From IMG/VR virus record IMGVR_UViG_3300037279_000046: a stretch of DNA of 54,444 nt. One strand, 5' to 3'. The translations under genes were made by a program, and so were the position numbers. Position 1 is the stretch's first letter, and each line of letters begins with the position of its first letter. Below, in pieces: positions 3,378 to 15,194 of this stretch. Source of the stretch: a virus. Its lineage: Duplodnaviria > Heunggongvirae > Uroviricota > Caudoviricetes. A model generated the notes under the pieces. It saw nothing but the letters and a program-made list of their open reading frames with translations. It did no database searches and was not told where the DNA came from.

Positions 3378-3407
3378 AATACCTCCCAGTTATATTCATC
3401 TATAGTC

Positions 3408-3896
3408 TCAGAAAATAGTTGTTAACAGCCAACATTCTTCATCTTCAAAAGATAAGGAGTCAACTACAAGAGATCTTAAATAGGTCATTTGATCTTGTTT
3501 AAGATCAGCATAAGTAGCATAATAAGCAGTAGCATAAGCAGCATAAGCAACATAAGCAGCAGCATCAGCAGCATCAGCAGCATCAGCAGCAACATCAGCA
3601 ACAACAGCAACAGCAGCATAAGCAACATAAGCAGCATAAGCAGCAGCATCAGCAGCATAAGCAGCATAAGCAGCATAAGCAGCAGCATCAGCAGCCTTAC
3701 ATTCCTCTTTTGTAGTTTTGCCTTCCATGAAGAGAGAAGTTACTTCTAACGCTTTAAGACTTCTTTCATCTTCCATGAGATGTTTAACTTGATTGGCGCA
3801 AAATAGAGCGAACTTTACTTGACTCAAATGTGGCAGTAGATAAAGAAAATGCTTTCTATTGTCCCAAGTGAAATCTTTTTCAAATAAAGAATCCAT
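3408..3896 (-). CDS. Ala/Tyr low-complexity repeat protein with Imm5-like helical N-terminus
   Basis: VKFALFCANQVKHL...SLKALEVTSLFMEGKTTKEEC followed by (AAY/AAD)n; SD GGGAGG before ATG 3896; family call from recalled resemblance only. Confidence 0.6.
   Translation of the reverse strand: MDSLFEKDFTWDNRKHFLYLLPHLSQVKFALFCANQVKHLMEDERSLKALEVTSLFMEGKTTKEECKAADAAAYAAYAAYAADAAAYAAYVAYAAVAVVADVAADAADAADAAAYVAYAAYATAYYATYADLKQDQMTYLRSLVVDSLSFEDEECWLLTTIF
3520..3695. repeat. Imperfect tandem 3/9-nt repeat (GCT GCT TAT/GAT)n on the coding strand
   Basis: Plus strand reads agcagcata/agcagcatc units over about 175 bp. Confidence 0.9.
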
Positions 3897-3957
3897 AATT
3901 ACCTCCCAGTAACAACCATCCATAAAATCAGATCAATGTTTGGTCTGACCCTTTGCT

Positions 3958-4392
3958 TCACGTTTTCAAGCTCTTAATGGCAAACTTTAGTTCAGCTAGT
4001 TCTTTTTTTAATGCTTTGTTTTCTTCTATAATTGGATGTTCAGAAAAATAGTAGTCACGCATTTTTCTTAGCATTTCATTGTCAGCTAGTATCGCAAAAT
4101 ATTTTTCAGTTTCAACCCAAACACCAGATGCGGCCATGCGGTGATATGACTTGAGCTGTTCGTTCGCAAAATACAGTTCACGACTAAGGCGCTCAGCCCT
4201 AGCGAATTCAGTTTCGGTGTCTTTAACAATGACTGCATGGTCAATCCCATCTTCAATGAAAAATGGTGCATTAGGTTTCTTGTTACTATTCACGTGCTCA
4301 TACTCCTTTTCAAAGGAATGGATCGAACCGCAGTCGATAATGAATCGCCCACAGACTTTGCATTTGTCGTCGTACTTAGCATTCTCACTCAT
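3958..4392 (-). CDS. Hypothetical protein with N-terminal CxxC and coiled coil
   Basis: KCKVCGR; heptad-like C-terminus. Confidence 0.7.
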   Translation of the reverse strand: MSENAKYDDKCKVCGRFIIDCGSIHSFEKEYEHVNSNKKPNAPFFIEDGIDHAVIVKDTETEFARAERLSRELYFANEQLKSYHRMAASGVWVETEKYFAILADNEMLRKMRDYYFSEHPIIEENKALKKELAELKFAIKSLKT

Positions 4393-4649
4393 AGATCCTC
4401 CAACATCTTGTTTATAGCTATTTGAGCTTTAACCTCGTCTTCTATGTTCTTTCCATAAGAACCTAACGTTGTATATCTTTGAAACAAGGATAATAGTCCC
4501 TCATCATCGCACAGTTCGTGCATCTCATTCATGGTCCAACGAATTGGTTGAGTTAACATATCATCAGGACCAGCATATCCGCTTTGAAATATATGAGTTA
4601 TCATCTTGCATCTTAACTCACCTTGTATGCAGAATGTATTCCTTCTCAT
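4389..4649 (-). CDS. Hypothetical protein (start uncertain)
   Basis: C-terminal part of track ORF 4389..4763; ATG at 4649 overlaps upstream stop. Confidence 0.5.
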   Translation of the reverse strand: MRRNTFCIQGELRCKMITHIFQSGYAGPDDMLTQPIRWTMNEMHELCDDEGLLSLFQRYTTLGSYGKNIEDEVKAQIAINKMLEDL

Positions 4650-4795
4650 TATTGCACGTATGAGCGACGGTAGGACCAGATGTTTAAGGCGCAGAAAGCG
4701 CCTTGGAACAGAGCCCAACCATAAGCACCAGCCATTAGGTCCACAGCACAGAAGAATGCGCACATAGCGATGACACCAATGCTAAAATACTTCAT
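4649..4795 (-). CDS. 48-aa two-helix membrane protein (not in ORF track)
   Basis: MKYFSIGVIAMCAFFCAVDLMAGAYGWALFQGAFCALNIWSYRRSYVQ; SD AAGGAG. Confidence 0.6.
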   Translation of the reverse strand: MKYFSIGVIAMCAFFCAVDLMAGAYGWALFQGAFCALNIWSYRRSYVQ

Positions 4796-4890
4796 AATCA
4801 CTCCTTAACGTAGTGTTTACCAATCCAGTTAATCAGCTCTTGCTGTCTGCGGTCATATATCTTCAGGGATTTGATCTTATCGAGCTCCAT

Positions 4891-4909
4891 GCGTAGCAGC
4901 AGTGTCAGT
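4891..4909 (-). repeat. Variant copy of ACTGACACTGCTACGCC element (3-nt insertion)
   Basis: Plus gcgtagcagcagtgtcagt versus ggcgtagcagtgtcagta at 7115 and 8162. Confidence 0.6.
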
Positions 4910-4928
4910 GGTGCGGACGGGAATAGAG

Positions 4929-4962
4929 AATGGGTCATAGTCGGAGGAAGCTATGACCCATT
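4929..4962 (-). terminator. 12-bp perfect hairpin downstream of 4978..5442 (terminator or processing site)
   Basis: AATGGGTCATAG-10 nt-CTATGACCCATT; no classical U-tract. Confidence 0.5.
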
Positions 4963-4977
4963 GATTGAGGTTGGATA

Positions 4978-5442
4978 TTACTTCGAGAACTTAGCAGCAA
5001 GGTCAGCAGGAAGAGCTGAGAAGTCAACTGTGACTTTCTTAGTCTTAGTTGCATTGATATCGCTAACACGAGCGTCAATGTAAGCTTGAACTTCAGCTTT
5101 CTCTTCGTCGGTAGTCAACGTCGAGATCAAAGCGCGCATTGCTTTGAGTTGCGGGTCGCCAGAGCCAGCGCGTGATCCAGGGTTCTTAGCAACGTAAGCG
5201 ACATTGCCGTTAAGGCGTTTGTCTTTACGCAACCAATTCGACTGAAGACCAGAGACATACGACTTCAAGTCGCTGTCAGTGATGTCTGTCTTCTCGAGCT
5301 CGATCTTTCCGCTACGGAAACCCTCGAACAAGATAGCGTTCACTTGAACGCGCTCTTCTTTGGTTGGGCTATAGCTATCAGCTTGGCCGCAAACGTTAGT
5401 AACGGCTTGGAATACTGCTTCTTTTTGCGACACTTTAGACAT
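4978..5442 (-). CDS. Early protein of unknown function, paralog A of 8407..8868
   Basis: Shares long identical blocks with 8407..8868 (QVNAILFEGFRSGKIE, YVSGLQSNWLRKDKRLNG, VDFSALPADLAAKFSK). Confidence 0.85.
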   Translation of the reverse strand: MSKVSQKEAVFQAVTNVCGQADSYSPTKEERVQVNAILFEGFRSGKIELEKTDITDSDLKSYVSGLQSNWLRKDKRLNGNVAYVAKNPGSRAGSGDPQLKAMRALISTLTTDEEKAEVQAYIDARVSDINATKTKKVTVDFSALPADLAAKFSK

Positions 5443-5499
5443 GGAAAACCTCCCGAGGTTTGTCTATTACAACCAAAGCGTTATTGCCTTGTTGTTTTG

Positions 5500-5724
5500 T
5501 TACCTTGTTCTAGTTTCAGATTCTTCACTATGTCTGAGTGATAGATTAACACTAAGTACTTTTCTCTTACCTACTAAAAAGTAAAGGTCCAACCAGACAT
5601 AAGCTGTATACTCGTCGTATCTATAACGACTAGGTATCAGCCATCTCCAGCCAGACCTTATAGGAATAGCAAGCATCAAGACATCAACTATCCGTTTAGT
5701 CATACAGTTTCTCCTGCTGCTCAC
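5500..5724 (-). CDS. Hypothetical protein
   Basis: ORF fills operon gap; 3' end overlaps promoter motif at 5511-5520. Confidence 0.45.
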   Translation of the reverse strand: MSSRRNCMTKRIVDVLMLAIPIRSGWRWLIPSRYRYDEYTAYVWLDLYFLVGKRKVLSVNLSLRHSEESETRTR

Positions 5725-6032
5725 ATATCATCAGCCACATCGTCCTCAGGCTTGTCAACCTTGACCTTACCCTCTAATACCACTACATTGACAACTCTGC
5801 CAGTGCCATGGTTAGCACCACCACAAGCACAGTCGCATGATGGACCATGAGCATGAGTGCATCTACCATCGCAAGCAGGTCTAGTCCCAGTCTTCTCCCA
5901 CTTCTCACCCTTAATAATGCCCATAAAGATGACAGGACCATCGCAGTCGTATGTGTCAATCTTTCTTTCAGCACTCGCAAATGGAGTGAGACAGTCTAAG
6001 CACTTATGATAATAGAGCATAAAACCCTCCAA
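5721..6032 (-). CDS. Cys/His-rich putative metal-binding protein
   Basis: CLDC ... CDGRCTHAHGPSCDCACGGANHG. Confidence 0.7.
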   Translation of the reverse strand: MEGFMLYYHKCLDCLTPFASAERKIDTYDCDGPVIFMGIIKGEKWEKTGTRPACDGRCTHAHGPSCDCACGGANHGTGRVVNVVVLEGKVKVDKPEDDVADDM

Positions 6033-6034
6033 GG

Positions 6035-6232
6035 TTAAAAACCTGTGTAGTAAGCTTGTTTGTACTCGTGCAATACTAAGTCAAAATCTTTATGAGTCAT
6101 TATGGTGCAGACAAACCACTCCATATCGTGGGCATCTAATACTCTCTTAGCCCACTTAATTGTGGTAACTCTGTGCTCTATGCTCGTAGAACTAACATAT
6201 ACACTCAATGCTTTGCTAAGTTTACTCATCAC
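6035..6232 (-). CDS. Hypothetical protein
   Basis: ATGA overlap with upstream ORF, SD AGGTAGG. Confidence 0.65.
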   Translation of the reverse strand: MMSKLSKALSVYVSSTSIEHRVTTIKWAKRVLDAHDMEWFVCTIMTHKDFDLVLHEYKQAYYTGF

Positions 6233-6567
6233 TTACCTACCTTATTGGCGTTCATCAAGTTCTCGGCGCACTCAACCTTAATGTCTTTCCATAGTGGATC
6301 AGCCCAAATCTTATGTATGTTCATGGCGATACTGCCAATGATAAACCGAACTATGATTCGTTGGTCATCAAGCGTTAGAACACCACCAGCTTTAAGCTTA
6401 TCTACTACTGCTTGGGCGATTGGACTTACCGGTATATTAGACTCGTAAAAGAACTGCATTGCTTCGATAAGTTCCTCACTAGAGACCATTACCTTCCTAT
6501 TCCATTCTGGGTTGATCTTATCTACAGCAGACTTAATGGTTTTCTTAATAACTTTTTTAATAGACAT
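6229..6567 (-). CDS. Hypothetical protein
   Basis: SD AGGTGA; promoter-like motif at 6601-6610. Confidence 0.7.
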   Translation of the reverse strand: MSIKKVIKKTIKSAVDKINPEWNRKVMVSSEELIEAMQFFYESNIPVSPIAQAVVDKLKAGGVLTLDDQRIIVRFIIGSIAMNIHKIWADPLWKDIKVECAENLMNANKVGK

Positions 6568-7114
6568 ACATCACCTCTCTCTCTCTCTCATACACCTCTC
6601 TAGGATCAGGGAGAGCAACCTAGTATCATTACAATACAACCTACAGGCCACTTCTATCCCTTACCTATTAGCAAGGGATTAGAGCAACCAGAGGCTAACC
6701 AGTGGACCACCAGGTTTTACGGTAAGGAATAAGATCAGGTATAGCGTAACCCGCTGATAAGACTAGGGCAAGGCGCGAATAGGCCCATGGGTGTAGCGAC
6801 GCCCACTCTGGGTTCGCTTTCCCCTCAACTATATTCTGGCCTGTATAGGTCCTGTCTTCCTCCCCTTCCCCTACGTAGGTAATCGGCGGGACCTGTATAG
6901 GTCTTATCGGGACATCTATAAGCCTGATCGTTGTGCTTATATAGGCCTAGATTCAGGACTTAACTATGCCGATACCTTGGGCCTTATTTTGGTTGTATCT
7001 AATGGATCGTTTCAGGATATGGGTAACCTGAGGGAGGATGTATCATTGTGGTGCAGTGTGATCGGGTTGTTTTTGGGCTACTCGGGTCAGGTAGTCAGGA
7101 TGGCCTGAGCTCCC

Positions 7115-7166
7115 GGCGTAGCAGTGTCAGTATGGGCCTGAGCTGTTGCCCGACCCATCTGACTGC
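7115..7166 (-). other. Bulged hairpin whose 3' arm (minus-strand RNA) is the conserved ACTGACACTGCTACGCC element
   Basis: GCAG-TCAG-ATGGG pairs with CCCAT-a-CTGA-ca-CTGC; 18-bp identity 7115-7132 = 8162-8179. Confidence 0.55.
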
Positions 7167-7189
7167 TGGCAGGTTATTATGGCTGGATA

Positions 7190-7444
7190 TCAGGCTGCTT
7201 CGTCCTGGCATGTGTACATGAAGCCGCCAAGGACTCCGAAGTATGCGAGGTCGTGGTTGTGCTTTGCCATCTCGTTCAGTGCTGCAGAGATGTCCTTAGC
7301 TATATCCGCTGATGTGATGTGGTTGTAGCGGCTGAAGTGCGCGAACACTATGCGGTTGACATGGGCTTGGTCATCGCACCACACAACCTTGCCGTTAGGA
7401 AACTCTACACCCAAGAGTCCATCGATCGTTCTGAGTAATTTCAT
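7190..7444 (-). CDS. Early hypothetical protein ending DEAA
   Basis: SD AGGAGG and promoter motif at 7471. Confidence 0.75.
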   Translation of the reverse strand: MKLLRTIDGLLGVEFPNGKVVWCDDQAHVNRIVFAHFSRYNHITSADIAKDISAALNEMAKHNHDLAYFGVLGGFMYTCQDEAA

Positions 7445-7532
7445 AGTATGCCTCCTAAGATAAGTACAGTTAATATCAGCAGGCCAAACCAGACTCCTAC
7501 ATAGACACGCTTACAACTGATAGCATCTTGGC

Positions 7533-7739
7533 TCATGCTGCAACCTCGATGTGAAAGGATACAGATGGAGTCACTGCAAGCTGCTGCTTCATCCACTTGA
7601 CATCAGCTGCTTTAAGGCCGAACACATGCTTTAAGTTCCAGACTAGGTTCTTCTCATTGAAGATGCGGAGGATAGGTCCTGACTCAGTGGTCAAGACGTA
7701 GTGCTTGTTGCTCTGTGTTATAGTCAGGTTCATGTTCAC
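7533..7739 (-). CDS. Early hypothetical protein ending EVAA
   Basis: SD AAGGAG. Confidence 0.7.
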   Translation of the reverse strand: MNMNLTITQSNKHYVLTTESGPILRIFNEKNLVWNLKHVFGLKAADVKWMKQQLAVTPSVSFHIEVAA

Positions 7740-7750
7740 TCCTTTGTTAG

Positions 7751-7996
7751 TTAAGATGCAAGTCTTTCAAACTCTTGTTCAGTGATCAGTTCGGTATATC
7801 CACTCACGACCTTAGCACAGCGATTGCCGTTCATTCTCAGCTTACCAAAGTCACGCTCTATCTGATTGAGCTTTAAGACCTTGTCAGTCTTGCGACCCAG
7901 TACATCGACTGTGGTGACGTGATAGTCACACATCGTCTCAGTGTTCTCGTTGCCGATTGCCTTGTTAAGCTTGATAAGTTGATAGCCTTTGAACAT
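7751..7996 (-). CDS. Early hypothetical protein
   Basis: SD AAGGAG, promoter CCTGATCT-TATACT upstream. Confidence 0.75.
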   Translation of the reverse strand: MFKGYQLIKLNKAIGNENTETMCDYHVTTVDVLGRKTDKVLKLNQIERDFGKLRMNGNRCAKVVSGYTELITEQEFERLAS

Positions 7997-8161
7997 TGCT
8001 TGCTCCTTTGTTATAAGTAAGTATAAGATCAGGACACTTATTCATGTCTTTCAATGAAAGAGGCGAGCTCGCGTTGCTCCACTTAAGGACTGCGATTCAC
8101 CATTCATGTCCCGTCTTATAATGGTCTATAGGTTCAGGCAATGCCCCAAGCTGAGGCACTA

Positions 8162-8202
8162 GGCGTAGCAGTGTCAGTAGGCGACTAAGCCTACTGACAC
8201 TG
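8162..8202 (-). other. 14-bp perfect hairpin with conserved ACTGACACTGCTACGCC 3' arm
   Basis: CAGTGTCAGTAGGC-gactaa-GCCTACTGACACTG, just after stop of 8209..8331. Confidence 0.7.
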
Positions 8203-8208
8203 GACTAG

Positions 8209-8331
8209 TTAGAAGAGTGGTGGATTATTAGCGAACCACTCTGCTAGTTGGTTAGCAGTCGCCTCATCCTCAGTGACTGCATCATACTCATCAGCTTCTA
8301 GATATATCTCACTCGGTTGTGCTTCGTTCAT
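8209..8331 (-). CDS. 40-aa highly acidic peptide (not in ORF track)
   Basis: MNEAQPSEIYLEADEYDAVTEDEATANQLAEWFANNPPLF; SD AGGAGG and promoter motif at 8351. Confidence 0.7.
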   Translation of the reverse strand: MNEAQPSEIYLEADEYDAVTEDEATANQLAEWFANNPPLF

Positions 8332-8368
8332 ATGTCCTCCTGGTTATGTTTAGAATCAGGACTCAAGC

Positions 8369-8394
8369 GAGACCAGGACCGAAGTCCTGGTCTC
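8369..8394 (-). terminator. 11-bp hairpin with C(UUCG)G tetraloop downstream of 8407..8868
   Basis: Minus strand GAGACCAGGAC-TTCG-GTCCTGGTCTC; no U-tract. Confidence 0.6.
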
Positions 8395-8406
8395 AATGAA
8401 CACTGA

Positions 8407-8868
8407 TTACTTAGAGAACTTAGCAGCGAGATCAGCAGGCAGAGCAGAGAAGTCAACAGTCTTGGCGACCTTCGTTGCGTTCAGCTCAGCGACTCGTGCA
8501 TCGATGTAAGCTTGAACTTCAGCTTTCTCTTGATCAGTAGTCAGGGTCGTGATCAGAGCGCGCATCGCCTTCAGCTGGGGATCAGTCGAACCAGCGCGCG
8601 AGCCAGGGTTCTTAGCGGTATACTGAACACCACCGTTCAAGCGCTTGTCCTTGCGAAGCCAGTTGCTCTGTAAGCCAGACACATAACCCTTCAGGTCGCT
8701 ATCGCTCTTCTCAGTATCAATCTCGATCTTGCCTGAGCGGAAACCCTCAAAGAGGATCGCATTCACTTGAGCGCGCTGTTCCTTAGTAGGTGCATACACA
8801 CCGTCTTGCTCGCCCATGACATTGATGATAGCTGCGAATGCCGCTTCTTTTTGTGACATCTTGCTCAT
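8407..8868 (-). CDS. Early protein of unknown function, paralog B of 4978..5442
   Basis: Near-identical blocks with paralog A; SD GGGAGG; promoter motifs at 8922 and 8985. Confidence 0.85.
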   Translation of the reverse strand: MSKMSQKEAAFAAIINVMGEQDGVYAPTKEQRAQVNAILFEGFRSGKIEIDTEKSDSDLKGYVSGLQSNWLRKDKRLNGGVQYTAKNPGSRAGSTDPQLKAMRALITTLTTDQEKAEVQAYIDARVAELNATKVAKTVDFSALPADLAAKFSK

Positions 8869-9168
8869 AACATATCCTCCCAGATATTGACTCGGCTTAA
8901 TTGCCTCATCATGTTACTCATTAGTTTCAGATCGTGCATCATAACTTAGCAAAGTCTTTATCATTGCCTCGTTATGCTACTCTATAGGTTCGGGAAACTG
9001 GCGCCCGCTATCCTCAGCTTAAAAGGGAACCCCTATTTTCAGGTCGGTACCCGCCGTCATTACTCCGTGTACATAAGCTTTTTCCTATAAAACAGGCCCC
9101 GCCACCTTCCAACCCTAATAGGCACAATGTACCACCTGGCCCTTTTCTCTATAGGTATAATTTTTCTG

Positions 9169-9327
9169 ATGAAACTCACATTTGATTTCCTTAATGATGA
9201 TCTATATCTGGTCCCCGCCCACAAGCGGAACCTACTAGTACTACTCGCTACACTCAACATCATCAACATCACATTTGAAGACCGCTTCATCGTTAAATGG
9301 ACCAACCAGGACCAACTTAAATTATGA
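9169..9327 (+). CDS. Microprotein with LxxLLxxL[N]-type motif; probable leaderless start
   Basis: MKLTFDF...RNLLVLLATLNII; TATAAT 9156-9161 then 7 nt then ATG. Confidence 0.7.
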   Translation: MKLTFDFLNDDLYLVPAHKRNLLVLLATLNIINITFEDRFIVKWTNQDQLKL

Positions 9328-9545
9328 AGAAAAACCACCACGCCACCCTCACCAAGCGCCAATTCGAGGACTTCGCTCCTTACAAGGACAAAATCCAGAA
9401 CTCACAGGTCTACCGCTTTCACTCATCAGGCGCACAACTATCTGTCCGCGCCTCCGTCGCGGCCAACGGGCTCCACTACATCTCCACAAACATGGCCCCC
9501 GCTAGCCTCATAATAATCTTGATTAAACTGGGCCTTCACCTATGA
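9324..9545 (+). CDS. Microprotein with motif (SLIIILIKLGL)
   Basis: ATGA overlaps at both ends. Confidence 0.7.
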   Translation: MKKNHHATLTKRQFEDFAPYKDKIQNSQVYRFHSSGAQLSVRASVAANGLHYISTNMAPASLIIILIKLGLHL

Positions 9546-9700
9546 ATGACTACATGACTAAACTAAAACACTACTCTCAGCTCTACATGTTCCTCAAACA
9601 ATTGGGCCTATCCGCTCCACTCGTCATGAACTCCAACGACGTCCACAACATTCACTTTGACGGGCAGACCCTCTCCTACTCTGGGACCACATCATGGTAG
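9542..9700 (+). CDS. 52-aa microprotein with motif (QLYMFLKQLGL), not in ORF track
   Basis: MNDYMTKLKHYSQLYMFLKQLGLSAPLVMNSNDVHNIHFDGQTLSYSGTTSW; ATGA-coupled. Confidence 0.7.
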   Translation: MNDYMTKLKHYSQLYMFLKQLGLSAPLVMNSNDVHNIHFDGQTLSYSGTTSW

Positions 9701-9948
9701 TAGCCGAACGCCCACTCACCTGTCAAATTGAGATGAACTATGGAAACGTCGACATCTCGTTCGTGGTTCCTCATCGTGCTCACGAGTCCAAACTTCCGCA
9801 GCTACAACAGGCCCTCTACTCTTCGCTCTACCAGCGATTCATCGGGCAAAGACAGACCTCGGCCCGCCTCGATGAGATGCGATCGATCGTGGACTCGACG
9901 GCTCCACTTCTCTATCTACTCCTTCAACTTGGCGTGAGGATAGCATGA
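9694..9948 (+). CDS. Microprotein with motif (PLLYLLLQLGV)
   Basis: Overlaps both neighbours. Confidence 0.7.
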   Translation: MVVAERPLTCQIEMNYGNVDISFVVPHRAHESKLPQLQQALYSSLYQRFIGQRQTSARLDEMRSIVDSTAPLLYLLLQLGVRIA

Positions 9949-10094
9949 TCCACGTCCTTACTCCTGAGGAGTTCTCACACTTCGTCGACCTATGGAATAT
10001 CTTGGGTAAACTCAAGGCCATGCCGTCCTACAGCATCGTCTACCATCGGGACCGATCTGGCCGCTGCACCGAAGTACATGTGGAGTTCCCATGA
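9945..10094 (+). CDS. 49-aa microprotein with weaker motif (HFVDLWNILGKL), not in ORF track
   Basis: MIHVLTPEEFSHFVDLWNILGKLKAMPSYSIVYHRDRSGRCTEVHVEFP; ATGA at both ends. Confidence 0.65.
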   Translation: MIHVLTPEEFSHFVDLWNILGKLKAMPSYSIVYHRDRSGRCTEVHVEFP

Positions 10095-10264
10095 GCTACA
10101 TTCCTTGCTCGTGCGACGACCTCGTCGGAGCACCTATCACCGAGATCAATGTCAAGGCACTTCCGCTCATCAAGCTCTTGCATAAACTTCTCCACGGGAA
10201 CAGGCCTCACCGTCTTGACCCGTACTGGGAGCCGGACGACTACTATGACACAGGTGTATCGTGA
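10091..10264 (+). CDS. 57-aa microprotein with motif (PLIKLLHKLLHG), not in ORF track
   Basis: MSYIPCSCDDLVGAPITEINVKALPLIKLLHKLLHGNRPHRLDPYWEPDDYYDTGVS. Confidence 0.65.
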   Translation: MSYIPCSCDDLVGAPITEINVKALPLIKLLHKLLHGNRPHRLDPYWEPDDYYDTGVS

Positions 10265-10407
10265 GACTTCACGGCATCTCTATAGAGTTCAAAGACTCCG
10301 AGTATCGAGGAGTCAGTACTCTTCACTGCACGCGTGCTCTTCCACGGCTTCTGAACCTAATGTTTCAGCTGAACCTCATCAAGGGCTTCTCGGTGACCGA
10401 GCTATGA
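10261..10407 (+). CDS. 48-aa microprotein with motif (RLLNLMFQLNLI), not in ORF track
   Basis: GTGA/ATGA coupling; MRLHGISIEFKDSEYRGVSTLHCTRALPRLLNLMFQLNLIKGFSVTEL. Confidence 0.65.
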   Translation: MRLHGISIEFKDSEYRGVSTLHCTRALPRLLNLMFQLNLIKGFSVTEL

Positions 10408-10610
10408 GCTTGTTTCAGAAGTGGAGCCACTACAGGTATATTGGCGAGACCGACGATGAGTTCCGGACCCGTATCATCGGGGATGCGAACCAGCGCTTCA
10501 ACATGATCATCGTCTTAGCCAAGCTCGGTATTCAGGAAGCTAGAGATCAGCTGAGCAAGGCCGGAGTTGAGTGGGCGAGCGACAGATGGTTTAACGACGG
10601 CGGACGATAG
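10404..10610 (+). CDS. 68-aa microprotein with motif (NMIIVLAKLGI) and baseplate-like GETDDEFRTRI segment
   Basis: ATGA-coupled start at 10404 inside track ORF 10149..10610. Confidence 0.7.
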   Translation: MSLFQKWSHYRYIGETDDEFRTRIIGDANQRFNMIIVLAKLGIQEARDQLSKAGVEWASDRWFNDGGR

Positions 10611-10635
10611 CCCAAAGTTCTAGTATAATAAAGAT

Positions 10636-10929
10636 ATGGAATACTTGGCACTCTCAGCAAACGGTCAGTGGTCTTTACATAAGAACACTAACGACCACGA
10701 TGCAGACTCGGTTGCTCCGCACACAGCGGACACACGACCGTATGAAGTATTTCAAGGACACTCGATGACGGGTCAACTCGCAGTTGACCACGGCAGTCAG
10801 GGTACTCTCCACGATTTCGGCGGCGGTAGCCGACCGAAAGCAGAACACACCAAGCAAGCACGCATCGGACAACCGAATCACCCGGTAGACTCGATGTACA
10901 GTGATCGTCACCCGGGCGACGGCGAATAG
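10636..10929 (+). CDS. Hydrophilic His-rich protein starting MEYLALSANGQWSLHKN; probable leaderless start
   Basis: TATAAT-N6-ATG; low-complexity polar body. Confidence 0.65.
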   Translation: MEYLALSANGQWSLHKNTNDHDADSVAPHTADTRPYEVFQGHSMTGQLAVDHGSQGTLHDFGGGSRPKAEHTKQARIGQPNHPVDSMYSDRHPGDGE

Positions 10930-10941
10930 TATAATCGCCGC

Positions 10942-11190
10942 ATGGCGATTGTTCCAAAGACATTTGATCAGATAATGGGCGAGAGCATTGCTTCTTTGAG
11001 CAAGGCACTTGAGGTAGAGATGTTCTATGGACATCCACGCCCTGAGGAAAAGCTTTGCGGTTTGCTCAGCAAGCTTGGTATTAAGAGTGCTCGCAGCTTC
11101 AGCATGTTTAAGTTTGAAGGACTTGACACAATTTTGAAGTCTGTTACGTTTGATAGCACTCAGCTCAAACTATGGAAAGATATTAAGTAA
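10942..11190 (+). CDS. Microprotein with motif (KLCGLLSKLGIKSAR) and N-terminus resembling the baseplate wedge N-terminus
   Basis: TATAAT-N6-ATG; MAIVPKTFDQIMG versus MAIQIKSFNQILG at 32578. Confidence 0.7.
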   Translation: MAIVPKTFDQIMGESIASLSKALEVEMFYGHPRPEEKLCGLLSKLGIKSARSFSMFKFEGLDTILKSVTFDSTQLKLWKDIK

Positions 11191-11262
11191 CTTAGTTCTA
11201 ACTCATTATATTGCATCTGGCAAGGGGCCCCGTCGAAGCGCGGGCGCTTAGGAGAAATACGA

Positions 11263-11481
11263 ATGCTGACAAATATGTTCGATAGCACTTCCACTCTGAA
11301 GCTGTTTCGTATTCTGTATCAACTGAACATCATCACTGATTTTTATCATAAGAAACATGCATTTTCGGCTCTGACTAAAATGATTAACCCGCCAGAGCCG
11401 AAAGAGAACTGGATTAGATTCGCCAGCGTAAGTCTTCAGATAGATTATATTGAGCTAATACCGGTGACCAGACGTGGATGA
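11263..11481 (+). CDS. Microprotein with motif (KLFRILYQLNII)
   Basis: SD AGGAG. Confidence 0.7.
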   Translation: MLTNMFDSTSTLKLFRILYQLNIITDFYHKKHAFSALTKMINPPEPKENWIRFASVSLQIDYIELIPVTRRG

Positions 11482-11581
11482 TTACGTCGATCGACGCAAG
11501 TCAACCAAGCTAAAGATCTTACTCGCGAAGCTTGGAATCAAGAGCGCACGCCCTGCTGTTTCAAGCTTATCAGGTTACTAA
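11474..11581 (+). CDS. 35-aa microprotein with motif (KLKILLAKLGIKSAR), not in ORF track
   Basis: GTG start after SD GGTGA; MDDYVDRRKSTKLKILLAKLGIKSARPAVSSLSGY. Confidence 0.65.
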   Translation: MDDYVDRRKSTKLKILLAKLGIKSARPAVSSLSGY

Positions 11582-11620
11582 TTGAGTTGAAATGTGTAAG
11601 CTGCAAAAGAATCAGCTTGT

Positions 11621-11902
11621 CTACTTCTTGGCACGCTGAGACGACGTTAAGTCTTGAATATGGCGTTCAAGGGCCATCGACGCTTCAAAGTAAGCCTCGG
11701 CCTTTTCATAAGGTGTTAAACACCCTTTAGTAGAAGGATCATAGGATACAAGAGTGAGCTGGTAGCGAACTGGCCCACCGTCTTCTGAGAGTTGTATTCT
11801 CTTTGTAACGGTCTCAATAGTACCTATGACTCTAAGACGCCTCAATAGCATATAGACATGATGCACTGAAGTAACTTGATCGGACGTCAATCTGTTGAAC
11901 AT
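11621..11902 (-). CDS. Small protein with motif (HVYMLLRRLRVI)
   Basis: Overlaps end of 11887..12072. Confidence 0.65.
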   Translation of the reverse strand: MFNRLTSDQVTSVHHVYMLLRRLRVIGTIETVTKRIQLSEDGGPVRYQLTLVSYDPSTKGCLTPYEKAEAYFEASMALERHIQDLTSSQRAKK

Positions 11903-12072
11903 GCATCCTCTGCAATCATCTTGCCAAGTCGAGCCATATAGTCAGTCCAGGTTGCTGCCGCAGGTTCAAATGATGAGCGAATGCCAAGGTCACGAAGAAA
12001 ATACAATAGTCGGAAATGTAGTTCCAACTTCTGTAGATCTTGTATCTTCTGGTACCGCCCAATCCGCGTCAT
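11887..12072 (-). CDS. Microprotein with motif (RLLYFLRDLGIRSS)
   Basis: Track ORF; motif match. Confidence 0.7.
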   Translation of the reverse strand: MTRIGRYQKIQDLQKLELHFRLLYFLRDLGIRSSFEPAAATWTDYMARLGKMIAEDACSTD

Positions 12073-12080
12073 GTACCTAG

Positions 12081-12212
12081 TTATACTAGCTTCGACTTAT
12101 GTGTGTATAGCAATTTGGCAAGAAAGAACTTTAGGTCAATAGCATAGTACAGATCGATTGCCTCTTTATTGTTCTTGAAACGAATAACAACAGGGCGCTT
12201 TTGATCTTTCAT
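12081..12212 (-). CDS. 43-aa microprotein with motif (DLKFFLAKLLY), not in ORF track
   Basis: MKDQKRPVVIRFKNNKEAIDLYYAIDLKFFLAKLLYTHKSKLV; SD AAGGA. Confidence 0.65.
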   Translation of the reverse strand: MKDQKRPVVIRFKNNKEAIDLYYAIDLKFFLAKLLYTHKSKLV

Positions 12213-12241
12213 AAGTACTTCCTTTGATGAGGACCTAGTAC

Positions 12242-12517
12242 TTATATTTTATCAGGTTCTTCGGAAAGCATCTCTTCTATAAGCTTATCGCCTAGCTTTT
12301 GTTCGTATAGGTCTTTCAGCAGCTTATCGTATGTAGATGTTCTTAGGTTGTAGCCGTACTTCTGTTCCCGGCGCATTTTGTTCTTAGGTCCGCCTAGTGT
12401 GCCCTGAAGATAAGAGATATCGTCACAGCTTACGAAACGTAGTTCAGATTTGATCTTGTCAACAACTAGTTGTTCTCTTCTAATGTCTTCTGTGTCGAAC
12501 GCCATACCATCTCCCAA
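12242..12517 (-). CDS. Hypothetical protein
   Basis: Track ORF; partial motif YDKLLKDLY. Confidence 0.6.
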   Translation of the reverse strand: MGDGMAFDTEDIRREQLVVDKIKSELRFVSCDDISYLQGTLGGPKNKMRREQKYGYNLRTSTYDKLLKDLYEQKLGDKLIEEMLSEEPDKI

Positions 12518-12524
12518 GACACTC

Positions 12525-12626
12525 TCACTTGATCTTCAATAAACGATACATAAAAGTAATGAGATGATACTTCGCCTGATCTTGCTTATGTCGAAGGAAT
12601 AAGTCAGTTACTACTGCTTGTCCCAT
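12525..12626 (-). CDS. 33-aa microprotein with motif (HLITFMYRLLKI)
   Basis: MGQAVVTDLFLRHKQDQAKYHLITFMYRLLKIK; start overlaps end of 12611..12856. Confidence 0.55.
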   Translation of the reverse strand: MGQAVVTDLFLRHKQDQAKYHLITFMYRLLKIK

Positions 12627-12856
12627 CGATGCTGCTCGATGTCCAGGGGTTCCTGCTCGTCCACAAGAGCATGATGTGTTATGACATCCAAAGCCATTTT
12701 TGCTCTTTGTGCTGGTGACGGTGGGTTCGGGTACAGAAACTCCGGGAGACACATTGCTTTGAACGGACATACTTTACACCTTTGCGATTCCATGCACTTC
12801 CCGTCTAGGGAAGCAATCTGTTCTAAAATTGTTGAGTCATTTTTACTTAGTGCCAT
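12611..12856 (-). CDS. Small Cys-rich protein, paralog of 12843..13106
   Basis: ILEQIASLDGKCMESQRCKVCPFKAMC; SD GGAG before ATG 12856. Confidence 0.7.
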   Translation of the reverse strand: MALSKNDSTILEQIASLDGKCMESQRCKVCPFKAMCLPEFLYPNPPSPAQRAKMALDVITHHALVDEQEPLDIEQHRWDKQ

Positions 12857-13106
12857 CTGGCTCTCCAAGCAAATCATCAACAGCTTTATCAATCAGTATA
12901 CGTGAGGCGACTTCTTTATATTTAGCGTCGGCCTGCTCTTCAGATAGATCTTCTACCCCAAGGGCTTCCACACATGACAAGAATGAGCCGTTTGATTTCT
13001 TTTTGAGCTTAGACAACGGACAGGACTTACAGATGGACGGTTTGGCCCACAGGGTACAAGAGCCCTCGGAATCTACGATTTTCTTCAATATGTCCATGCT
13101 ATCCAT
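12843..13106 (-). CDS. Small Cys-rich protein, paralog of 12611..12856
   Basis: ILKKIVDSEGSCTLWAKPSICKSCPLSK...LSC. Confidence 0.7.
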   Translation of the reverse strand: MDSMDILKKIVDSEGSCTLWAKPSICKSCPLSKLKKKSNGSFLSCVEALGVEDLSEEQADAKYKEVASRILIDKAVDDLLGEPDGTK

Positions 13107-13170
13107 TTGTTTCAGATGATCCTAAAGAAGATTATACAGTACCTATTAACTAGGATGATATAATGTGTCA

Positions 13171-13662
13171 ATGGAAGAGACAAAGTATTGTCAGTACTGC
13201 GATAAGAATAAACCACTAGATGCATTTCAAAAGAGTCGTGCTAAGTGCAGACCTTGTAGAACTCTTGAGACCAAGAAGTGGAAACAAGAGAATTCTGACC
13301 AGCATTATCTATATCAAAAAGAGTATAAGGCAAAACGATATAAGTCGGATCTCAACTTTAAGATTAAGGTCATCTTAAGATCTCGTGTTCGTAAATTTCT
13401 CAAGAACAATTGGAAGAGTGGGTCGTCAGTCGACATGCTCGGTTGCTCTGTAGAAGATTTTAAGTTACATATAGAGTCAAAGTGGCAAGAAGGAATGTCG
13501 TGGGATAACTGGTCAAAACTTGGCTGGCATCTAGACCACATACTTCCTCTAGACTCATTCGATCTTTCTAAACCAGAAGATATGGCTAAGGCATGCCACT
13601 TCACGAATCTCCAACCGTTATGGGCTCTAGAGAATTGTATTAAGTCAAACAAGGTAGAATAA
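13171..13662 (+). CDS. Free-standing HNH-type homing endonuclease
   Basis: N-terminal CxxC..CxxC; WHLDHILP...CHFTNLQPLWALENCIKSNK; AT-rich; TATAAT-N6-ATG at 13171. Confidence 0.8.
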   Translation: MEETKYCQYCDKNKPLDAFQKSRAKCRPCRTLETKKWKQENSDQHYLYQKEYKAKRYKSDLNFKIKVILRSRVRKFLKNNWKSGSSVDMLGCSVEDFKLHIESKWQEGMSWDNWSKLGWHLDHILPLDSFDLSKPEDMAKACHFTNLQPLWALENCIKSNKVE

Positions 13663-13666
13663 AGCC

Positions 13667-14491
13667 ATGAGTATGGATCGCCCGAACCAACAGTTTCCGA
13701 ACCCACCCGCGACCTCAGTCACCTCGACTCCGTCGCCGATGCCGATCTATCTTCCAGATCCTAGTATCAAGGGTGCCAGTTTCGATCAACTCCTTTCTCA
13801 ACGTGGAATTCGCTTCATTCACTACAAAGCGATTCCTTGCATGAACATCAAGAGCACTGACTTTGAAGCTCATGAGCCTGACTGTCAGTTCTGCGATGAC
13901 TCAGGAATTATCTACTACGCTCAAAACGAGATCTGGGGCGTATTTTCAGGAAATAGTATAGAGAAGACGTTTGAAGCCCACGGTGTGTGGGAGACTGGTA
14001 GCGCAGTCGTAACGCTTCCTACAACGTACCCAGACGGCACGCAAGCAGACTTCAATACCTTTGACAGGCTAGAGATGCCGGATTACACCGTGCGCCTCTG
14101 GGAGCTTAAGGGATATGAGCCTCGTCCCGGCAACATACAAGAGCTTCGTTATCCCGTTGAGAAGGTTGAGTTCGCATCTACAATTGTAGATGGAGTCCAG
14201 ACTTTTTATTATCCAGATGTTGACTTCACGGTGAACGCCGACGGTCAGATCGTTTGGATAGATGGCCGTCAGCCAGAGTATAGTGCTGCTTTAGAGCGTG
14301 GTGCTGTTGTTGGTTGGGCGTATTTCGCTAAGCCAGTCTATGTGGTTCTCCAGTCACTTCGTGAACTTAGAATCACACAGGAACTCGTCGGCGGAGTAAA
14401 AACCGCTATACGCTTGCCTCAACAAATCCTTGTTAGACGCGACTTTATGGTGGGTTCTGGTGAAAAGATTGTTAATGCCCCTATACGCTGA
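13667..14491 (+). CDS. Neck/head-completion protein (SPO1/K-like CxxC-containing family)
   Basis: FDQLLSQRGIRFIHYKAIPC...CQFCDDSGIIY; position upstream of sheath. Confidence 0.65.
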   Translation: MSMDRPNQQFPNPPATSVTSTPSPMPIYLPDPSIKGASFDQLLSQRGIRFIHYKAIPCMNIKSTDFEAHEPDCQFCDDSGIIYYAQNEIWGVFSGNSIEKTFEAHGVWETGSAVVTLPTTYPDGTQADFNTFDRLEMPDYTVRLWELKGYEPRPGNIQELRYPVEKVEFASTIVDGVQTFYYPDVDFTVNADGQIVWIDGRQPEYSAALERGAVVGWAYFAKPVYVVLQSLRELRITQELVGGVKTAIRLPQQILVRRDFMVGSGEKIVNAPIR

Positions 14492-14552: not shown

Positions 14553-15194
14553 ATGATAAACTATAGCGATAAAATGAAAATTGCTAGACTATCTAATCCA
14601 CTGAAAATGGATACAGTTTATCGTTGTTTTTGTGATACCTGCGGTAAAGATAGGGGCTATAAGCGCAAAGTGGATGCTAATAGGTCATGTTCTTCATGCG
14701 TTGCAAAGCAGCGCGTTATTTCAGAGGAAACTAAAGTTAGAATTAGCGATAGTATTAAAAAGTTGCCACCAATTTCAAAAGAATCTAGACTTAAGGCTGG
14801 ATTAAAATTAAAGGGCAGAAAAGTCTCCTTAGAGACTAAGAAAAAATTAAGTTGCATAAAGAGATCTATACCTATAGATCAATTTGATGATTTTTTAAAC
14901 CCTATTAATAAAAGAGATAGGGATTTAATATATAAGAGTGGTCTATCTAAGTCAATTTACGAACGAGATAACTTCAGTTGTCAAGTTTGCTATAAAAATG
15001 GTAAACTCGTTGCTCACCATAAGAATGGTTTTGACCTATTTCCTCAAGAGCGCTTTGATGTTAACAACATAATAACTTTATGCAATAATTGTCATCAAAA
15101 GTTTCATAAAAAATTTGGTTATAAAAACAACACCAAAGATCAATTTCAATTATTTTTAAGTGAGGTTGTAAGTGCCAACAGCAGTCTCACGTAA
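14553..15194 (+). CDS. HNH homing endonuclease with NUMOD3-like repeats
   Basis: SEETKVRIS/SLETKKKLS; RDNFSCQVC...VAHHKNGF...NIITLCNNCHQKFH; AT-rich. Confidence 0.85.
   Translation: MINYSDKMKIARLSNPLKMDTVYRCFCDTCGKDRGYKRKVDANRSCSSCVAKQRVISEETKVRISDSIKKLPPISKESRLKAGLKLKGRKVSLETKKKLSCIKRSIPIDQFDDFLNPINKRDRDLIYKSGLSKSIYERDNFSCQVCYKNGKLVAHHKNGFDLFPQERFDVNNIITLCNNCHQKFHKKFGYKNNTKDQFQLFLSEVVSANSSLT

Follow-up and report, generated by a model that had tools for sequence, protein, structure and literature searches.

A clade-specific array of phage microproteins with one capped leucine-rich helix in common

Background

Most small genes of large phages have neither a known function nor a known family. 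In eukaryotes the F-box and BC-box adaptors join a constant docking element to variable target-binding parts in large, fast-evolving families, and the F-box itself, whose hub is Skp1, spans three helices in a domain of about 40-50 residues. The array of phage microproteins described here shares with them the idea of a constant docking element and variable parts, but its motif is a single helix of about 17 residues without homology to the F-box, and no F-box or SOCS-box domain is found (Pfam, E<=1) in the ORFs of the window, by which we mean the whole 54,444-nucleotide (54-kb) stretch analysed.

The nearest known analogue seems, in concept, to be the capsid-targeting sequence (CTS) of the T-even phages. 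There the internal proteins IPI, IPII, IPIII and Alt form a diverse set sharing only this short sequence, which is strictly N-terminal, is removed by the prohead protease and addresses the proteins to a common partner (PMC3012670); a preliminary description of this DNA had known of no such system. As with the CTS, diverse small phage proteins of a variable locus share one short peptide and the virion module adjoins the array. Unlike the CTS, the element is a 17-residue helix plus cap that may sit at any position of the protein, in 2-19 copies per genome. The host-takeover module of Bacillus phage SPO1 (26 small genes; PMC6873191) likewise encodes numerous small proteins of poor conservation in a dense operon, although no common motif has been reported among these (PMC6873191).

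The array in the window

The source is an uncultured peat phage of about 175 kb; in this genome, as in each of its relatives, the tiny motif genes number up to about 19. The preliminary description had proposed an array of 15 microproteins with one motif in common, and the array itself is borne out: a six-frame search of the window with [LIVMF]xx[LIVMF][LIVMFW]xxL[GN][ILV] gives 18 matches, ten of them inside 9100-12700 and all ten within the previously listed ORFs and in their orientation. Dinucleotide shuffles of the array region give on average 0.20 matches (maximum 3, n=1000) and residue-shuffled ORFs 0.085 (maximum 2, n=5000). The first eight ORFs are chained as described, by six 4-nt ATGA/GTGA overlaps and one of 7 nt.

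The number of copies is another matter. A motif HMM trained on the relatives' copies, with a top background score of 6.4 bits, gives 9.8-19.5 bits in nine window ORFs (9127, 9542, 9694, 10261, 10404, 10942, 11263, 11474 and 11887) and marginal scores of about 6.5 bits at 10091 and at 9324, whose motif runs right up to the stop. The remaining four of the 15 do not score above background: 9945 is unsupported, whereas 11621, 12081 and 12525 are conserved genes whose orthologues retain the variant helices LLRRL[RK]VIG, FLxKLLY and FMxKLLG respectively. Eleven of the 15 listed copies have G or N as their cap, as had been counted, and the so-called 16th copy at 11592-11639 is a frame of 15 codons. 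The genes are as follows.

9127..9327, +, 66-aa ORF; LLVLLATLNI at 9232-9261; HMM 12.2 bits; regex match; start placed at 9127 here and at 9169 previously; N-terminal part resembles a membrane helix (KD19 2.01)
9324..9545, +, 73-aa ORF; LIIILIKLGL at 9507-9536, stop two residues on; HMM 6.5 bits, match curtailed by the ORF end; regex match; ATGA overlap at either side
9542..9700, +, 52-aa ORF; LYMFLKQLGL at 9581-9610; HMM 9.8 bits; regex match
9694..9948, +, 84-aa ORF; LLYLLLQLGV, C-terminal, at 9907-9936; HMM 12.1 bits; regex match
9945..10094, +, 49-aa ORF of the overlap chain; FVDLWNILGK at 9981-10010 unsupported as a copy, HMM 0.1 bits
10091..10264, +, 57-aa ORF; borderline LIKLLHKLLH at 10166-10195, lacking a Gly/Asn cap; HMM 6.6 bits, top background score 6.4
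10261..10407, +, 48-aa ORF with GTG start; LLNLMFQLNL at 10348-10377; HMM 10.4 bits
10404..10610, +, 68-aa ORF; MIIVLAKLGI at 10503-10532; HMM 10.2 bits; belongs to cluster 0, the largest that blastp makes of the motif ORFs
10636..10929, +, 97-aa Gly/Pro-rich conserved gene without the motif, within the array; homologues in 15 loci
10942..11190, +, 82-aa ORF; LCGLLSKLGIKSAR at 11053-11094; HMM 17.5 bits; orthologues in loci L024 and L061
11263..11481, +, 72-aa ORF, AGGAG upstream; N-proximal LFRILYQLNI at 11302-11331; HMM 15.3 bits; homologues in 5 loci
11474..11581, +, 35-aa protein, nearly all motif; LKILLAKLGIKSAR at 11510-11551; HMM 18.8 bits
11621..11902, -, 93-aa conserved gene; variant helix VYMLLRRLRVIG at 11828-11857; main-motif HMM 0.6 bits; LLRRL[RK]VIG retained by homologues in 21 loci
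11887..12072, -, 61-aa conserved family member; LLYFLRDLGIRS at 11980-12009; HMM 19.5 bits; 57 database clusters matched, none with a name
12081..12212, -, 43-aa conserved gene; variant LKFFLAKLLY at 12105-12134, without Gly cap; HMM 3.8 bits; homologues in 17 loci
12242..12517, -, conserved gene, about 87-91 aa, lacking the motif; belongs to the same leftward operon; homologues in 8 loci
12525..12626, -, 33-aa ORF; variant LITFMYRLLK at 12534-12563, FMxKLLG in orthologues; HMM 3.2 bits; frame open to 12770

No homologue of the seven + strand chain ORFs (9127-10407), the 9127..9327 ORF included, was detectable in 59 related loci. HNH endonuclease genes adjoin the array.

A short helix constrained at the protein level

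The conserved element is a Leu-rich helix, roughly three turns long, whose Leu stripe lies on one side (positions 0, 3, 4 and 7). A Gly/Asn C-cap with a hydrophobic staple closes it, K-S-A often comes next, and the whole takes up some 17 residues. Conservation is confined to one helix face and the cap; enrichment past the cap is limited to K, S and A (22-29%), Glu is not conserved, and nothing is conserved beyond +12. The conservation is of protein: each of the six Leu codons appears at the invariant Leu positions, Ser is encoded by both AGY and TCN, and in 162 of 162 homologous pairs pN falls below pS, with a median omega of 0.39 over the 30 unsaturated ones. The KLGIKSAR copies of the 10942 and 11474 ORFs, which had been singled out for their synonymous codons, do differ solely at four synonymous third positions.

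A chance pattern, a DNA- or RNA-level repeat or non-coding sequence might be suspected from the weak codon-usage scores of the small ORFs and the odd composition of 9127-9948 (32% C, 17% G). The shuffles, the Leu codon diversity and the selection in every pair refute this, as does recurrence in the same frame in more than 40 contigs, and one sequence was found identical in contigs from four sequencing runs; we consider it almost inconceivable.

Distribution among related phages

The search of related contigs suggested in the preliminary description finds the arrays again in more than 40 uncultured phage contigs, with 1.06 hits per kb in arrays against 0.24 per kb elsewhere, 2-19 hits per whole genome, and a clade consensus of [S/A/H]xxxLLxLLxKLG(I/L/V)KSA. 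There, 188 distinct motif ORFs make up 126 blastp clusters; every motif ORF among the relatives is at most 140 aa (superfamily median 56 aa), some of 35-45 aa are nearly motif only, and the proteins are mostly basic (median pI 9.0). In all of IMG/VR just 10 contigs contain a strict DNA pattern for LxxLLxKLGIKSA, all ten being relatives of this phage, and by these sequence searches the motif is a clade hallmark. Pfam and PHROG families do not match the motif proteins, nor do the window ORFs match Pfam at E<=1, and none of 50,697 phage records gave a cultured relative. The motif had been reported absent from the 1-9 kb genes; in the window no HMM match of at least 7 bits lies there, but in relatives that side does have motif genes, and other motif genes lie among nucleotide-metabolism genes.

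That the constant module sits in otherwise unrelated proteins, as had been proposed, is supported by its placement (of 126 clusters, 42 have it near the N-terminus, 57 in the middle and 27 near the C-terminus) and by hhalign between subfamilies, where only 24 and 13 columns align, around the motif. In orthologue alignments the invariant columns fall in the motif, and its flanks include Zn-ribbon-like and hairpin sequences among others. The array is part of a clade-specific, greatly expanded phage microprotein superfamily, with the helix as sole common element. Single-pass membrane microproteins were considered and rejected, because just 8 of 125 cluster representatives reach KD19 >= 1.6.

What the helix may do

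The reading we favour, tentatively and at close to an even chance, is that the motif is a portable docking or association helix, a candidate binding module for a common partner; both the binding and the partner are what we infer. Through the shared helix a whole variety of small proteins would reach one conserved surface, and each would owe its individual activity to its variable remainder. About half of this reading would go to a conserved host or phage protein as partner, about a third to other family members, such as the 61-aa hairpin protein (11887-12072), and the rest of the rough split to a virion precursor. A more ambitious form, possible but on the doubtful side, is a hub-and-adaptor system in which up to about 19 microproteins per genome would plug the constant helix into one conserved machine (host or phage protease, chaperone, polymerase or prohead core) and hypervariable remainders would pick targets or cargoes, the array then being an evolvable library of adaptors or decoys. 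Against docking, many proteins competing for one site would need a rationale.

Alternating Gly and Asn at a cap, with a hydrophobic residue following, are classic features of helix capping, and the motif cap has both. L-x-x-L-G-h-x-S is a generic helix C-cap or helix-helix corner signature, present also in XRE-type HTH domains and a LAGLIDADG intein, and so the conservation could be partly structural. The arrays might then be fast-diverging tandem paralogues or frameshift-reborn genes that keep a Schellman-type capped helix as folding nucleus, with no common partner. Such a relic, which we think unlikely though worth serious weight, would fit tandem arrays of rapid turnover, with the 9127-10407 chain lacking homologues in the 59 loci, and a signature that recurs in unrelated solved proteins and, weakly, in PF14528. 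The AF2 model of the 61-aa protein at 11887..12072 is a two-helix hairpin (pLDDT 89) with L-G-I at the turn or tip, a position in favour of docking. The model can bury the Leu stripe against helix 2, and in the hairpin subfamily the stripe may simply pack on the protein's own second helix, which counts against docking. However a folding relic fits less well with the residues kept across the 126 clusters when all else is lost, namely Leu rather than just any hydrophobic residue, K at -2 from Gly and K-S-A after it, or with a non-collinear motif found at N-terminus, middle or C-terminus and joined also to non-helical Cys-rich domains. C-terminal copies stop 3-8 residues past the cap and so have no following helix to turn into.

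Complex prediction weakly supports a possible mutual binding of two family members, 11887-12072 and 10942-11187, with a score of 0.35 against 0.01 for the best control, the score runs for the pair disagreeing (0.56, 0.35 and 0.01). At least 5% of contacts agree between runs and partner pLDDT is at least 43. In calibration 58 of 80 solved complexes attained the mark, as did 2 of 110 mismatched pairs; with a score of 0.60 or below it was attained by just 7 of the 80 solved complexes and by both passing mismatches.

Were the docking reading right, the motif peptide could retrieve the partner for a whole class of small phage genes. One short recognisable peptide unites well over a hundred clusters of these and so gives a single experimental handle on phage 'dark matter'. 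Should that partner turn out to be a single conserved machine, bacterial viruses would have in the array their own counterpart of the motif-based adaptor families, as well as a natural library of modular binders.

Very improbably, the proteins are miniaturised or decayed nucleic-acid binders that retain an HTH helix-turn or the LLxRLGI helix of a LAGLIDADG homing-endonuclease half-domain. The motif does resemble XRE HTH and LAGLIDADG_3 (PF14528) in its hydrophobic residues at i, i+3/4 and i+7 followed by Gly, a hydrophobic residue and Ser/Ala; among solved structures a profile search picks out Rgg/XRE regulators and, at E 0.02, a V-ATPase intein that has three such helices, PF14528 touches two motif ORFs, and HNH endonuclease genes lie nearby. 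But the motif proteins have no further such features and often end right after the cap, with no third helix, no conserved hydrophobic residue at Gly+6 and no LAGLIDADG motif upstream, and they are intact small ORFs under purifying selection. Identity with LAGLIDADG_3 was rejected since the best scores, 13.2 and 12.3 bits, lie below the 22.5-bit Pfam cut-off and cover only about positions 38-81; an HTH (XRE/Cro) identity was rejected on the two-helix hairpin model, the absence of conservation beyond +12 and the lack of an HTH Pfam match.

Upstream elements and a possible virion address

A TATAAT-N6-ATG element is common to several array genes and tail/baseplate genes. TAGTATAAT stands 6 nt before the ATG of 10636..10929 and of 10942..11190, and array genes 10636, 10942 and 13106(-) share the element with sheath, baseplate and fibre genes, and 12072(-) has a copy with one mismatch, TAGTATAAC, whereas the leftward 0-9 kb block has none. 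The array does not look like that 'early' block, several of its genes having a tail/baseplate-type element. This, the adjoining virion module, the basic proteins and the precedent of diverse T4 internal proteins sharing just one conserved targeting sequence (PMC3012670) would suit a motif acting as an address to the virion. We regard such an address as distinctly improbable, because the motif is N-terminal in only a minority of clusters, no conserved cleavage site is apparent after it, the structural proteins of the window and loci neither carry nor obviously complement it, and some motif genes lie among those of nucleotide metabolism. Of all long ORFs in the loci, 39% also have a TATAAT element ahead of them, so the element may not mark late genes only.

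Layout of the array and copies of the motif

According to the ORF listing the small ORFs form two convergent runs, and six ATGA/GTGA overlaps, together with a single 7-nt one, join the first eight, so both the convergent arrangement and the overlap chain reported in the preliminary description are borne out.

9127-11581 (+), first run of small ORFs
11621-13106 (-), second, convergent run

A Shine-Dalgarno sequence is absent from many of the chain ORFs. With the motif written as the regular expression [LIVMF]xx[LIVMF][LIVMFW]xxL[GN][ILV], a six-frame search of the 54 kb gives 18 matches, 10 of which lie within 9100-12700, all ten in the proposed ORFs and orientation. Dinucleotide shuffling of the array region yields a mean of 0.20 matches (maximum 3 in 1000 shuffles) and shuffling of residues within the ORFs a mean of 0.085 (maximum 2 in 5000), and the proposed excess over shuffled controls is thus found. 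This expression was set up after the fact and so the set of related phages serves as the independent test. A profile of the motif segment recovers nine ORFs of the window at 9.8-19.5 bits, against a background of at most 6.4 bits; hence of the fifteen copies first listed nine are clear, those in 9324 and 10091 are borderline, and 9945, 11621, 12081 and 12525 fail the profile. Three of the last, 11621, 12081 and 12525, are conserved genes whose orthologues have related but distinct helices (LLRRL[RK]VIG, FLxKLLY and FMxKLLG). Scoring of the small ORFs by codon usage was indecisive. A further frame of 15 codons (11592-11639, +) ends in LVYFLAR-stop and overlaps the convergent gene 11621-11902 at its 3' end; it may be what is left of another copy, or chance.

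Recurrence in related phages and samples

Fifty-nine IMG/VR loci of relatives were retrieved with two flanking genes (8407-8868 and 13667-14491), and the syntenic arrays looked for in related contigs are present: the motif reaches 1.06 per kb over 5 kb of sequence upstream from the virion-gene anchor versus 0.24 per kb elsewhere, with the strand layout of the window. The consensus of the aligned copies is [S/A/H]xxxLLxLLxKLG(I/L/V)KSA, with conservation confined to positions -4 to +12. Five relatives available as whole records have 2, 5, 12, 15 and 19 profile matches at E≤10 (2-14 at E≤0.01), all in open frames of at most 140 aa and most of them around the array, and a strict back-translated LxxLLxKLGIKSA pattern finds 10 contigs among all 2.9 million of IMG/VR, every one a relative. 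The array is therefore real, highly non-random, clade-wide and uncharacterised.

Turnover within the array is fast, since the seven + strand ORFs of 9127-10407 have no detectable homologue in any of the 59 loci although the anchors are 74-80% identical; nor did a metagenome-contig search find relatives of 9694-9948. On their coding strand the first four chain ORFs (9127-9948) have 32% C to 17% G (GC skew -0.31); they may be young or very fast-evolving genes.

The window encodes virion proteins, including a tail sheath and a tail-tube initiator, and none of 50,697 deposited records of cultured phages matches it in nucleotide or protein sequence (megablast, blastn, tblastn). The array sequence is present in 24 peat metagenome runs, with no RNA run among those listed. 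Contigs from four sequencing runs show 0 differences across 8800-13200, which rules out a one-off assembly artefact and makes polymorphism-based pN/pS impossible. A flanking virion gene has relatives in three metagenome-assembled genomes (L073, L074, L075), labelled as Saprospiraceae and Cytophagales (both Bacteroidota) and Saccharibacteria, and these labels hint weakly at a Bacteroidota host.

Selection on the protein

Conservation at the level of the protein, as originally argued from two KLGIKSAR copies, is confirmed: these differ at four synonymous sites only, and across 117 cluster representatives the invariant leucines use all six codons near background proportions and the serines of the motif use both codon families. 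The suggested check for purifying selection also came out positive, pN being below pS in 162 of 162 homologous pairs, with a median omega of 0.39 for the 30 pairs whose dS is unsaturated.

Placement and flanks of the motif

Clustering by blastp sorts the 188 distinct motif ORFs into 126 groups, in which the motif is N-terminal (42), central (57) or C-terminal (27). Profile-profile comparison aligns the motif alone, over 24 columns between A1, the 61-aa family, and A5, a subfamily with a conserved C-terminal NxxGxPDxLxMxP...KK module, and over 13 columns between A1 and another subfamily, A4; in orthologue alignments the invariant columns lie within the motif. Flanks include a CxxC...CxxC zinc-ribbon-like domain, the module of A5 (L002:8229-8498, L004:6630-6842, L011:5678-5950 and others) and helical hairpins; in some proteins of 35-45 aa there is little besides the motif. 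The A5 type forms 128 clusters at 50% identity among 1.84 billion proteins, nearly all of 51-132 aa. Few members are membrane-like (8/125) and the median pI is 9.0. The modular adaptors or decoys first proposed are consistent with these data as regards a constant motif amid unrelated flanks; the common hub they were to bind was not found.

An origin of these proteins as capsid or baseplate fragments is unsupported, in that the profile of one subfamily's C-terminal module matches no large ORF in the loci, and blastp of the 10404 and 10942 proteins against the long proteins of the window gives a best E of 0.013-0.04. The only long protein matched by a subfamily profile, P0170, is a repeat protein whose LLxxLGIxSAEAFG repeat looks like a chance resemblance.

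Structure and database resemblance

In the confident AlphaFold2 model of the 61-aa family (11887-12072; pLDDT 89) two helices, 2-28 and 32-59, form a hairpin whose turn contains L-G-I. The motif is therefore predicted to take in the three final turns of a helix and a Gly/Asn C-cap, which has a hydrophobic staple, and to provide the N-cap for the following element. The alternation of Gly and Asn in the cap position is as expected for a left-handed capping residue. A Cys-rich subfamily with a C-terminal motif is modelled at low confidence (pLDDT 62), the motif helix being its best-defined part.

A Foldseek search of PDB and viral models with the predicted hairpin returned generic helical hairpins, none at E≤0.001, and neither Pfam nor PHROGs gave anything consistent for the window ORFs, 18 cluster members or larger motif proteins. 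Database members of the 61-aa family form 57 clusters, every one metagenomic and unnamed; a word-index search with the single protein found only itself, and the ESM Atlas gave no usable lead. Look-alikes from a solved-structure profile search are local (three LLxKLGI helices in a V-ATPase intein, one in Rgg/XRE regulators) and two motif ORFs touch PF14528 at 12-13 bits, below the cut-off of 22.5, so the signature is a common helix-corner pattern. Pfam, PHROG and solved-structure profile searches gave no evidence of HTH or LAGLIDADG membership. A purely structural relic, in which the helix and its cap are kept for folding alone, is a serious rival to a binding function.

An upstream element and a possible virion address

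Ten of the 26 TATAAT hexamers in the window are found at most 45 nt upstream of a start codon on their own strand, versus 0.6 expected.

TATAAT hexamers near start codons
10624-10629
10930-10935
13131-13136 (-)
13159-13164
14511
17308
18996
29978
42201
49009

Between four of them and the ATG there are exactly 6 nt. This spacing, which recurs in relatives, is suggestive of leaderless mRNAs; several members, including the 11887-12072 orthologues, have a conserved TATAAT 6-9 nt before ATG. A sigma-70 promoter and terminator scan found no excess over shuffles. Start-proximal hexamers are limited to the array and the virion module, with none in the leftward 0-9 kb block. A separate word, YCYGA-N3-TA, has 35 matches in the window, 15 of them clustered on the - strand in 3403-9043, and is absent upstream of array genes.

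That array, tail and baseplate genes have the hexamer in common keeps alive the idea that the motif is a virion-address tag, for which the internal proteins of T4 are a precedent, being diverse and having a targeting sequence as their sole common element (PMC3012670); the array likewise combines diverse small proteins with one common short element. Against such a tag, the motif is not N-terminal, other copies lie among metabolism genes, and 39% of all long ORFs in the loci are preceded by TATAAT.

A proposed portable binding helix

One helix face and the cap are kept with residue-level fidelity, in positions and contexts that vary freely. The most economical reading is that the motif would be a portable binding helix carried by otherwise different small proteins. 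Complex prediction lends weak support to binding between the 11887-12072 and 10942-11187 members, with a score of 0.35 (best control 0.01), at least 5% of contacts agreeing between runs and a partner pLDDT of at least 43; 58 of 80 solved complexes reached the mark used, as did 2 of 110 mismatches, and at scores of 0.60 or less only 7 of those 80 did so, together with both passing mismatches. The members may bind one another or a third protein. Mimicry of the ClpX IGF loop by L-G-I, directed at the phage ClpP-like proteases, is a candidate idea; ClpP-fold genes occur in 5/5 whole relatives, whatever the motif count. Near one ClpP-like gene there are secondary motif genes, which belong to a nucleotide-metabolism block rather than a head module.

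Genes beside the array

Further genes and frames lie within or next to the array.

10636-10929 (+), conserved 97-aa Gly/Pro-rich protein within the array, without the motif; homologues in 15 loci, no match in Pfam or PHROG
12611-12892 (-) and 12843-13106 (-), two small Cys-rich (CxxC) proteins at the head of the leftward operon, without known family
12525-12770 (-), 81-codon frame overlapping 12611-12892 (-)

Across 38-51 related loci the two Cys-rich proteins keep 67-80% identity, far above the motif genes. In about 10 relatives the 81-codon frame, which ends with the FMxKLLG helix, has no stop throughout its overlap with the 3' part of the conserved Cys-rich gene; candidate explanations are an overlapping gene, a product of frameshifting and a by-product of conservation in the main frame. 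The 153-aa flanking gene (8407-8868 in the window), without a match in Pfam, PHROG or PDB, is present in the related locus L002 in two copies, 10001-10462 and 14734-15192, about 4.7 kb apart.
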